A DNA stretch of 64,000 bases from the NCBI RefSeq assembly GCF_000027125.1, contig NC_017626.1. One strand, written 5' to 3'. Shown one piece after another: positions 5,705 to 7,004 of the stretch. The position numbers and the translations under genes are program-made. The stretch's first letter is position 1; each line of letters begins with the position of its first letter. The DNA comes from Escherichia coli 042 (lineage in GTDB: Bacteria > Pseudomonadota > Gammaproteobacteria > Enterobacterales > Enterobacteriaceae). Below the pieces are notes generated by a model. That model was given only the letters and a program-made list of their open reading frames with translations. It had not been told where the DNA came from and made no database searches.

Positions 5705-5830
5705 ATGAGAGGCTCTTCACATCGCCGCTTCATTATTCGTCCAGAAAAAGATGATTATCCCTTAAGTGATGAAATGGAAAATGTGGTTTCCTTGGGATTT
5801 AGCAATAATAAGGATTTGCAGAATGTTTAA
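5705..5830 (+). pseudogene. 41-codon chimeric remnant: ybhN 3-prime-end copy fused to the 3-prime end of a gene-A homologue
   Basis: ATG 5705 directly after the gene C stop; the last 26 codons (DDYPLSDEMENVVSLGFSNNKDLQNV) align with the gene A C-terminus (13 of 26 aa identical by hand). Confidence 0.35.
5715..5734. repeat. Duplicate of the ybhN 3-prime terminus (att-like direct repeat)
   Basis: cttcacatcgccgcttcatt at 5715-5734 is identical to 6046-6065 (reverse-strand end of ybhN, ...NEAAM stop); 24 of 25 nt when extended. Confidence 0.65.
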
Positions 5831-6044
5831 AGATAAAACTGTCGCAGCGGAAATTAGTGCATTAATGCTTGAGATTGGTGCGAAATTAGATAATTCCGTT
5901 TCAGTTGTTCAGATAAGTTGTGATGAATCTGAGTTTAATATTTATCGGGCCGCCGTTGGTGAAATTATGGGGCGCATGCTAATCGACATCATGAACCCCA
6001 TTTATAAACAGCATCCCGAACTTAAACAAAAAGAACTTAACTAA
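5823..6044 (+). CDS. Hypothetical small protein, islet gene D (73 aa from ATG 5823)
   Basis: AGGA at 5811-5814 with 8 nt spacer; stop is 3 bp from the convergent ybhN stop; the ORF-track start at 5766 has no RBS. Confidence 0.4.
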   Translation: MFKDKTVAAEISALMLEIGAKLDNSVSVVQISCDESEFNIYRAAVGEIMGRMLIDIMNPIYKQHPELKQKELN

Positions 6045-6047
6045 ACT

Positions 6048-7004
6048 TCACATCGCCGCTTCATTTTTCGCCCGCAGCTTCTTCGCCTGGCTTTCCAGTA
6101 ACAGGTAACAGATCAGCGCCAGCAGCAGTGGGATAAAGTAATACAGCACACGATAAGCGAGTAGGGCGGCGATAATTGTGCCTTTAGATGTATGCTCCCC
6201 TGCCAGTAGCGCGATAAACACCGCTTCCAGCACACCAATTCCCGCCGGAATATGCACGATGACACCAGCAATACTACTAACCAGCAACACGCCCAGTACA
6301 AAGAAATAGTTCACGCTTTGACCAAGTAACAGCCAGATTATCGCTCCCATTACCATCCAGTTAACGCTGGAAATCAGCATCTGGGCGAGGGCAAATTTCC
6401 ATGAGGGCAGCACCAGTTTTTGCCCTTTGATGGTCATATGGCGGTGCTTCGCGAAAGCGCAAAACCACAAATAAACCGCGATAATCATCAATAAGCCAAT
6501 GCCGAGAATACGCAGTGTAGTTTGATCGACATACCAGTGATCCGGCAACTCCACCACGCCTGCGGTAAAGATAATCCCCGCCAGTAAAATATAGCCCAGC
6601 CAGTTGGTGGTAATACTCAGCGAGAAAATCCGCGTGATAGTGCTGCCCGGTAACCCTAGCCGGGAGTACAAACGATAGCGCATACCAATGCCGCCGACCC
6701 AGGTACTGAGTGTCAGGTTGAAGGCGTAGCAGATAAACGACACCAGCATCACCTGGCGCTTCGCCAGTTTGTGACCGCAGTAGAAGCGGGCGAGCAGGTC
6801 ATAGCAGCCGTAAATCAGATAACTGACGACCACCAGCCCGACCGCACTAAGCAGCGCAACGCGATTGTAGTCGCGGATGACCTTCCAGACCTCTTCCCAG
6901 TCCACCTTTTTGGCGTAGACCACCAGCAACACAATCACCGCGATAAAAAACAGCCAGGTGAGGATCTTCTTTGCTAAGCGCCAGCGCGGGTGTGATTTAC
7001 TCAT
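6048..7004 (-). CDS. ybhN: Inner membrane protein YbhN (lysylphosphatidylglycerol-synthase-like TM domain)
   Basis: 318 aa multi-TM ORF; start overlaps clsB stop; ybhP-clsB-ybhN operon order. Confidence 0.92.
   Translation of the reverse strand: MSKSHPRWRLAKKILTWLFFIAVIVLLVVYAKKVDWEEVWKVIRDYNRVALLSAVGLVVVSYLIYGCYDLLARFYCGHKLAKRQVMLVSFICYAFNLTLSTWVGGIGMRYRLYSRLGLPGSTITRIFSLSITTNWLGYILLAGIIFTAGVVELPDHWYVDQTTLRILGIGLLMIIAVYLWFCAFAKHRHMTIKGQKLVLPSWKFALAQMLISSVNWMVMGAIIWLLLGQSVNYFFVLGVLLVSSIAGVIVHIPAGIGVLEAVFIALLAGEHTSKGTIIAALLAYRVLYYFIPLLLALICYLLLESQAKKLRAKNEAAM

Follow-up and report, generated by a model that had tools for sequence, protein, structure and literature searches.

Why does this stretch of Escherichia coli DNA contain the 3' terminus of ybhN twice, once at the gene itself and once inside the AT-rich islet beside it? 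The window, meaning the whole 64-kb (64,000-nucleotide) stretch that was analyzed, runs moaB-E, ybhL (2357-3142), ybhM (3322-4062, broken by a stop codon), the islet, ybhN, clsB, and ybhP onward. An earlier note had reported that a 20-nt stretch at the end of ybhN, stop codon included, occurs at two places 331 bp apart, and had offered two readings: att-site duplication, or a junction between two alternative alleles that had each abutted ybhN. The duplication is real and lies exactly where the note had placed it.

The islet and its two ybhN termini

The only open reading frames between moaE and ybhQ are ybhL, ybhM, the four islet genes A to D, ybhN, clsB, and ybhP (Table 1). The product of ybhN belongs to the LPG_synthase_TM family. 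The protein encoded by gene A is identical to CBG33699.1, and the four islet proteins have the same sequences as CBG33699-CBG33702 in E. coli 042; exact copies of all four are present on about 90-105 assemblies, including that of E. coli 042. The Pfam match of gene C spans residues 55-153 on positions 78-173 of the 179-position model PF14435, and the source annotation names the product "SUKH-4 family immunity protein." Gene D, for which no Pfam, NCBIfam, or PADLOC match was found, is the usual downstream partner of a DUF3969 gene.

Table 1. Features of the islet and its right-hand border, in window positions
Feature	Position	Strand	Description
AT-rich islet, ybhM to ybhN	4063..6045	+	GC ~22-39% vs ~50-58% in ybhN and clsB
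Gene A, DUF3969 family, 125 aa	4121..4498	+	Pfam PF13108, E = 3e-16
Gene B, 152 aa, no family	4587..5045	+	Restricted to Escherichia
Gene C, SUKH-4 family, 199 aa	5105..5704	+	Pfam PF14435, E = 6.9e-6
41-aa fusion ORF (predicted)	5705..5830	+	Created by the joint; overlaps the start of D
ybhN relic (copy of the 3' terminus)	5715..5742	-	Stop, 2 nt past the stop, last 7-8 codons
Joint (breakpoint), C/ybhN-type to A'-D-type allele	5739..5743	.	Three-way sequence comparison; 141-nt query
dA', 3' part of a second DUF3969 gene	5742..5830	+	Last ~29 codons (ending ...KDDYPLSDEMENVVSLGFSNNKDLQNV, then stop)
Gene D, 73 aa	5823..6044	+	Escherichia/Shigella only; start overlaps the dA' stop
Last 16 nt of gene D	6030..6045	+	Also kept beside ybhN in the common "empty" E. 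coli allele
Authentic ybhN 3' terminus (right-hand copy)	6046..6073	-	Runs into the intact 318-aa ybhN ORF
ybhN, right-hand bound of every islet allele (conserved)	6048..7004	-	318 aa

Between genes C and D lies dA', the tail of a second DUF3969 gene without its first ~95 codons. This tail matches the gene A 3' end at 77% identity (5746-5811 vs 4414-4479) and the corresponding end of a full-length DUF3969 gene in strain 88-3493 at 92%. Full-length DUF3969 genes of 118-125 aa occupy the same locus in other E. coli, in Escherichia fergusonii, and in Escherichia albertii. The predicted 41-aa ORF crosses the ybhN relic in antisense and continues in the frame of dA'; an identical 41-aa protein has been called on metagenome contigs of the same arrangement.

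The 20-mer CTTCACATCGCCGCTTCATT is found on the + strand of the 64-kb window at exactly two places, 5715-5734 and 6046-6065, and allowing up to three mismatches adds no others. The copies are direct repeats. Compared without gaps, 5715-5742 and 6046-6073 agree at 26 of 28 positions; over the shorter extension the agreement is 24 of 25, as the earlier note had counted, with position 5735 as the sole mismatch. On the right, the repeat is the genuine end of ybhN (...AKNEAAM, with the stop, tca, at 6048-6050) plus 2 nt past the stop. The left-hand copy has the same stop triplet at 5717-5719 and is contiguous with gene C, exactly as in alignments of E. coli alleles in which gene C directly abuts ybhN (GF4-3 and EC42405; a slash marks such abutment below, as in C/ybhN). 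Homology of the relic to ybhN is certain over 5715-5739 (24/25) and ambiguous over 5740-5742. The relic departs from the ybhN of the window at one or two positions (5735 and 5740), changes that may be later mutations or may reflect the allele of the donor.

Chance, a generic dispersed repeat, or an assembly artifact is almost certainly the wrong explanation of this duplication, which has nothing but the shortness of the repeat to recommend such an origin. No match to CTTCACATCGCCGCTTCATT arose in 100 dinucleotide-preserving shuffles. A 32-nt query for the ybhN terminus hit 5,422 of the 5,426 complete E. coli genomes, at 5,427 places in total (median, one per genome). In the GTDB set, just two Escherichia species representatives have the exact 20-mer, each a single time. 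Being single-copy across 5,422 other E. coli genomes, CTTCACATCGCCGCTTCATT does not qualify as a generic repeat; recurrence at many unrelated loci, which the earlier note had named as the mark of one, was not seen. The repeat has no Rfam match at E <= 1, no REP-like structure, and no terminator-like site. The same structure recurs in independent JGI, ENA, and NCBI assemblies, and the presence of the exact A to D proteins on some 90-105 assemblies likewise argues against an artifact.

Further copies were sought within the islet and at its left border. The earlier note had found none on the ybhM side, and that holds: the best local score for a degenerate ybhN terminus at the ybhM boundary is 10, within the range of shuffled sequence (mean 7.7, maximum 11). 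An 11-mer in gene C, ATCGCCGCTTC at 5197-5207, was considered as a third partial copy and rejected. It is absent from gene C of contig L007 and of GF4-3, and, since it hinges on a SNP at 5199 that these relatives lack, it is attributed to chance. Among the five surplus places found with the 32-nt ybhN-terminus query, two are on plasmids.

Alleles of the locus and the joint between two of them

The ybhL-ybhN interval is hypervariable in Escherichia, with at least seven allele types. Nearly all E. coli have ybhN directly after ybhM. This "empty" allele is itself a deletion derivative and retains the end of gene D at the ybhN stop. Rarer E. coli alleles include ybhM-A-D/ybhN (PT62 and 2014C-3075), a membrane ORF followed by A'-D/ybhN (88-3493 and FDAARGOS_943), X-A-B-C/ybhN (GF4-3), A'-B'-C'/ybhN with a REP-like insertion (EC42405 and three others), and X-D/ybhN (2020CK-00188); IS-disrupted alleles are also present. 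A-D/ybhN is the arrangement in E. fergusonii, and A-D is also present in E. albertii, where the ybhN-clsB-ybhP stretch beyond it is deleted, so an A-D pair beside ybhN is the old state in the genus. The end of the E. albertii deletion at first seemed to fall ~28 nt into ybhN, like the end of the relic, which raised the idea of a breakpoint hotspot in ybhN. That idea was dropped when gapped alignment left ~90 nt of degenerate ybhN in E. albertii, placing the two breakpoints at different positions.

The cross-genome alignment proposed in the earlier note identifies two kinds of strain, each matching one side of the islet. GF4-3 aligns to window positions 4114-5739, through gene C and 25 nt into the relic, where its own sequence continues into a full ybhN. 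In EC42405, the C tail and ybhN junction match 67 of 68 positions of window 5672-5739. Five E. coli genomes in all (these two and three more) have the order ...DUF3969-B-SUKH4/ybhN, and in each the alignment to the window stops at 5739. In at least 13 genomes a full-length DUF3969 paralog is followed by D/ybhN, and these align only from 5742; alleles of the 88-3493 type continue from there through dA', D, and ybhN. A 141-nt query across the joint gave the same division among the 20 genomes that it matched: 5 aligned at query positions 1-80 or 13-80, 13 at 83-141, and 2 at 106-141 only. None of the 5,426 complete E. coli genomes spans the joint at 5739/5742.

As each parental allele type matches its own side of the joint and none spans it, the islet is a chimera of two allele types that both abutted ybhN. 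On these alignments, the window is a stacked chimera with the order A-B-C-(ybhN relic)-(last 29 codons of A')-D-ybhN. This directly supports the second reading of the earlier note, whose proposed comparison gave the predicted outcome: both parental junction types occur at this locus in other genomes, and assembly of the islet took two steps or more, as the note had suggested. Every other fetched allele of the locus has one ybhN terminus or none at up to four mismatches; among the alleles compared, only the chimeric one has two. The immediate parents were not found in the collection, where the best match to the A-B-C side and the best match to the A'-D side are each 92% identical. With parental matches no closer than this, the joint can be placed only to the interval 5739-5743, and the ambiguity at 5740-5743 corresponds to a microhomology of 0-4 nt, which is an upper bound because the exact parents are not in the collection.

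The order of events could in principle be reversed, with the stacked arrangement as the ancestor and A-B-C/ybhN and A-D/ybhN as products of deletion between direct repeats. Both deletions are formally possible, one between the ybhN-terminus copies and one between the DUF3969 3' ends, and the "empty" allele with its 16 nt of D is an example of a deletion derivative at this locus. Such an ancestry is nonetheless very unlikely. A ybhN fragment within the islet can be derived only from a C/ybhN junction that already existed. Moreover, the chimera has only a truncated A', so the A'-D alleles, in which A' is intact, cannot be its descendants. The A-D pair is older, as its presence in E. fergusonii and E. 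albertii indicates, and the C/ybhN junction occurs in two allele families only 81% identical, making it older than the rare and nearly invariant chimera.

Several lines of evidence bear on how often the chimera arose. Four metagenome contigs have the identical joint, including the mismatch at 5735, and three of these are of essentially the same lineage as the window. Between contig L007, the fourth, and the window, flanking genes diverge by 1.2-2.5%, but 4121-5830 has only 4 SNPs. The identical joint in all carriers, together with the low divergence of L007 over this tract, points to a single origin. The chimera therefore had one origin, and homologous recombination later carried it into other backgrounds. 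The low-divergence tract common to L007 ends between 5742 and 5876; as judged from this pattern, the right-hand crossover of the later transfer is within that interval. Because the tract ends there, there is a weak hint that the recipient of the chimera already had a homologous A'/D segment. Close relatives of the source genome are missing from the collection; the nearest one available is 98.7% identical to the window, with divergence that is mosaic over ~37 kb aligned (0-4.8% per 500-nt bin), and identity in ybhM and gene A among alleles is also mosaic.

Routes to the joint

The segment 5715-5742 is very probably a recombination scar, left when an A-B-C/ybhN allele met an A'-D/ybhN allele and one end was resolved by homology and the other illegitimately. 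The 25-28-nt piece of the ybhN 3' end would originally have been attached to gene C in the A-B-C/ybhN allele. Once DNA of this allele and an A'-D/ybhN allele were together in one cell, one end would have been resolved by homologous recombination in common flanking sequence. At the other, an illegitimate joint would have connected ybhN, ~25-28 nt in from the stop, with A' near codon 97. The outcome would be the order seen in the window, A-B-C, the relic, the A' tail, D, and ybhN, with the gene sets stacked and not exchanged. Stacking of this kind yields two direct repeats, the ybhN terminus (copies 331 bp apart) and the DUF3969 3' end (copies 1,332 bp apart).

The probable pathway is homology-facilitated illegitimate recombination (HFIR) of a linear fragment ending 25-28 nt inside ybhN, or the mirror-image event. 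A joint with 0-4 nt of microhomology fits illegitimate joining combined with a one-sided homologous anchor, and experimental HFIR in E. coli produces joints at which 0-1 nt are homologous (Amarir-Bouhram et al. 2011, PMC3240628). The E. coli experiments on HFIR and circle integration resemble the present case in their near-zero joint homology and in the homologous exchange that would have taken place elsewhere (PMC3240628). They differ in using engineered laboratory substrates, whereas the event at this locus is natural and fixed, and its pathway is one that we infer. The frequency of HFIR in E. coli, ~3.5e-10 per recipient, is very low and counts against the scar model (PMC3240628). According to the account in PMC5361080, HFIR was first described in Acinetobacter (de Vries and Wackernagel 2002) and in pneumococcus (Prudhomme et al. 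2002). With A-B-C and its 25-28 nt of ybhN as the incoming DNA, the classical HFIR direction, the resident allele would have been ybhM-A'-D/ybhN, with A' reading ...CCAGAAAAAGATGAT....

A second route to the same topology is Campbell-type integration, a variant of the allele-junction idea in which ybhN is the homologous anchor. Here a fragment running from the middle of A' through D and into 25-28 nt of ybhN would have recircularized and entered an A-B-C/ybhN chromosome by a single crossover, giving the direct repeats observed on either side of a 311-bp insert. The duplicated homology is merely 25-28 bp, at the lower limit for RecA-mediated exchange, and the circle, at ~336 bp, would be very small. 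The minimal efficient segment for such exchange is ~23-27 bp. If a longer duplication was made and trimmed afterwards, an extra step is needed. There is precedent for the route: in E. coli conjugation with one-sided homology, 56 of 60 recombinants had arisen from recircularized, partly degraded DNA by single crossovers that duplicated the homology, showing that circle integration can duplicate part of the anchor, but the duplications in those experiments measured 109-950 bp (PMC3240628). Jackson et al. also proposed circular intermediates for the displacement of Rhs tips, with partial anchor copies left behind (PMC2935791). Since the circle route requires its crossover within 25-28 bp, it ranks second to HFIR, and we regard it as unlikely.

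The first reading of the earlier note, att-site duplication, treats the 311-331-bp dA'-D unit as a mobile cassette inserted site-specifically at the ybhN end. Its appeal is the likeness to the attL and attR sites of a phage, ICE, or genomic island: two identical 20-nt direct repeats, derived from the end of a conserved gene, bracket a discrete and foreign-looking segment. The contents of the segment do not suit a cassette, and the reading is extremely improbable. The left end of the unit falls within a gene, near codon 97 of a DUF3969 frame that is full-length in other strains and species, and full-length A'-D loci have one ybhN terminus or none. No integrase, transposase, or recombinase ORF is present from moaE to ybhQ; the proteins of A to D have no NCBIfam or PADLOC hits and no recombinase domains. 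The unit lacks terminal inverted repeats, and islet DNA has no match in the plasmid and phage collections. The ybhN terminus is not reused elsewhere, and the comparison genomes have no empty or occupied sites with the same ends. The 311-bp unit appears as an insertion in no genome compared; these have C/ybhN or a full A'-D/ybhN instead.

It is also very unlikely that the ybhN end is a preferred point at which orphan immunity cassettes are exchanged and stacked by a dedicated mechanism. If that were the case, the ybhL-ybhN interval would be a recombinase-less, integron-like immunity array in Escherichia, and that mechanism would account for the relic and for the many alleles that end precisely at the ybhN stop, in place of selection on ybhN combined with a rare accident. 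The scar is an ordinary product of recombination by a known process, and represents neither a new mechanism nor a new kind of element.

Stacked gene sets and putative immunity function

By analogy, the locus resembles Rhs tip displacement and the orphan immunity arrays of type VI secretion systems (T6SS) in the way it works. When an Rhs tip is displaced, part of the conserved core stays attached to it as a copy (Jackson et al. 2009, PMC2935791). In Rhs arrays, as in the window, low-GC alternative modules are stacked beside a conserved anchor and not exchanged, the modules are laterally acquired and recognizable in other strains, and the displaced module retains part of the anchor, generating direct repeats; the counterpart in the window is the 25-28-nt ybhN relic on A-B-C (PMC2935791). 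The two systems differ in the anchor, which in Rhs is the core of a toxin gene and in the window is the 3' end of an unrelated, opposite-strand membrane-protein gene, and in the length of the relic, which in Rhs is tens to hundreds of codons. Furthermore, the islet has no toxin gene, and only one displacement step is seen.

An origin by HFIR has been proposed for the T6SS orphan immunity arrays of Vibrio cholerae (Kirchberger et al. 2017, PMC5361080). In those arrays, as would be the case in the islet, homology on one side is combined with an illegitimate joint on the other and the older genes are kept, and double-homologous allele replacement is the commoner event, as it appears to be at this locus too (PMC5361080). 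The ybhN locus differs in having no secretion cluster or effector, and A, B, and D have a putative role in immunity. The scar differs as well, in consisting of a piece of the flanking core gene, which allows the joint to be mapped to ~4 nt. With ybhN as the anchor and no toxin or secretion genes, the locus is a member of neither the Rhs nor the T6SS array family.

The scar is an unusually clear natural example of addition to a variable gene set in place of replacement. A fragment of the flanking core gene came along in the event, and for that reason the joint can be mapped so closely and both parental alleles can be recognized. The stacking logic of Rhs tips and T6SS arrays is thus also seen where a toxin gene and a secretion system are absent, and the ybhL-ybhN interval can be flagged as a hypervariable Escherichia site with a likely orphan immunity function. 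The locus has apparently not been described: the searchable literature yielded no account of DUF3969, or of ybhM together with ybhN, and no solved structure for DUF3969 was found.

The islet genes are probably orphan immunity genes. An immunity-type function is supported for gene C by its SUKH-4 match; no toxin domain was found in the islet, and no toxin gene adjoins gene C. For A, B, and D we infer the immunity role. It is speculation that keeping both gene sets is advantageous. In the case of gene A, the genomic context of its homologs suggests an immunity type. The DUF3969 model PF13108 matches 255 cluster representatives at E <= 0.001, and two of the six homolog contexts examined are CdiA loci, the other four being short or uninformative. 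One of these distant DUF3969 genes overlaps the 3' end of a gene for a 1,439-aa Fil_haemagg_2 protein and has a second DUF3969 gene downstream. Another is part of an orphan array that follows a CdiA_C domain and a CDI immunity gene.

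The islet-free arrangement

The common "empty" allele of E. coli, in which ybhM is directly followed by ybhN (strain HS, for example), retains the 3'-terminal 16 nt of gene D, abutting the ybhN stop. The gene pair A-D (A followed by D) is present in E. fergusonii, where it adjoins ybhN, and in E. albertii as well. Because of this retained tail and the presence of A-D in both species, ybhM|ybhN, although widespread, looks to have been derived by deletion rather than to be ancestral. In E. albertii, ybhN, clsB, and most of ybhP are missing, and about 90 nt of a degenerate ybhN 3' end is fused to sequence matching window position ~8850, within ybhP.

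The chimera, in which two alternative islet alleles are stacked beside ybhN, is carried by no complete genome in the E. coli collection, although the proteins it encodes match E. coli 042. The closest of these genomes is about 98.7% identical to the window over 21 kb. Frequencies of the chimera estimated from this collection are lower bounds, since the source lineage of the window appears to be absent from it.

Coordinates of features in the window and in comparison loci (L numbers)
Feature	Location	Strand	Details
Bax-inhibitor-1 paralogues	between ybhL and islet; L001, L006, L013-L015, L017		ybhL, extra copy, ybhM, 232-aa "X"
ybhM	window 3322-4062		TAA stop at 3646-3648
Best sigma-70-like promoter match of islet region	window 4080-4107	+	TTTAGA, 16-nt spacer, TATAAT; 10/12
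D tail, 16 nt, as retained in the empty allele	window 6030-6045; L002 2281-2296		
ES036 (CssrF) sRNA	window 16818-16860	-	Rfam, 41.5 bits
Region of missing ybhN, clsB, and most of ybhP, E. albertii	L017/L018 5223-5330		
DUF3969 gene with IS2 and IS1 insertions	L005 2182-3410; L013 2787-3484		two other E. coli lineages
REP/BIME-like element, EC42405	L012 ~4775-4915		GCCTGATGCG...GCCGCATCCGGCA
CdiA loci with DUF3969 homologues	L029 1695-8624; L021 1-5339		

Islet genes and their expression signals

Distant homologues of DUF3969, the family of gene A, occur within loci for CdiA (contact-dependent inhibition). In one case the homologue overlaps the 3' end of a gene for a 1,439-aa haemagglutinin-repeat protein, the usual position of an immunity gene, and a second copy is found farther along the same array. 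From this placement, DUF3969 may be an immunity family that is still uncharacterised. IS2 and IS1 insertions break the DUF3969 gene in two other lineages of E. coli. In strain EC42405, a REP/BIME-like palindromic element lies within the 3' end of the SUKH-4 gene and splits its final ~45 nt from the rest.

The total count of promoter-like sites in the islet region is not above shuffled expectation. The best sigma-70-like match lies just upstream of gene A, and a promoter predicted at this site would be consistent with transcription of A-B-C-(dA')-D as one unit, where dA' is the remnant of a second DUF3969 gene. At gathering threshold, Rfam gives one match across all 64 kb of the window, the ES036 (CssrF) sRNA.

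Variation among the membrane-protein genes

The stretch of membrane-protein genes at this locus varies as much as the islet does. In the window, ybhM, a Bax-inhibitor-1 family gene, is broken by an in-frame stop. A near-identical contig (L008) has T at the position corresponding to 3647, giving TTA (Leu), and its ybhM is whole at 237 aa, so the window copy has a recent nonsense mutation. Tandem Bax-inhibitor-1 family paralogues number from one to four, differing by strain and species, and strain 88-3493 has an unannotated membrane ORF of ~113 aa in place of ybhM.
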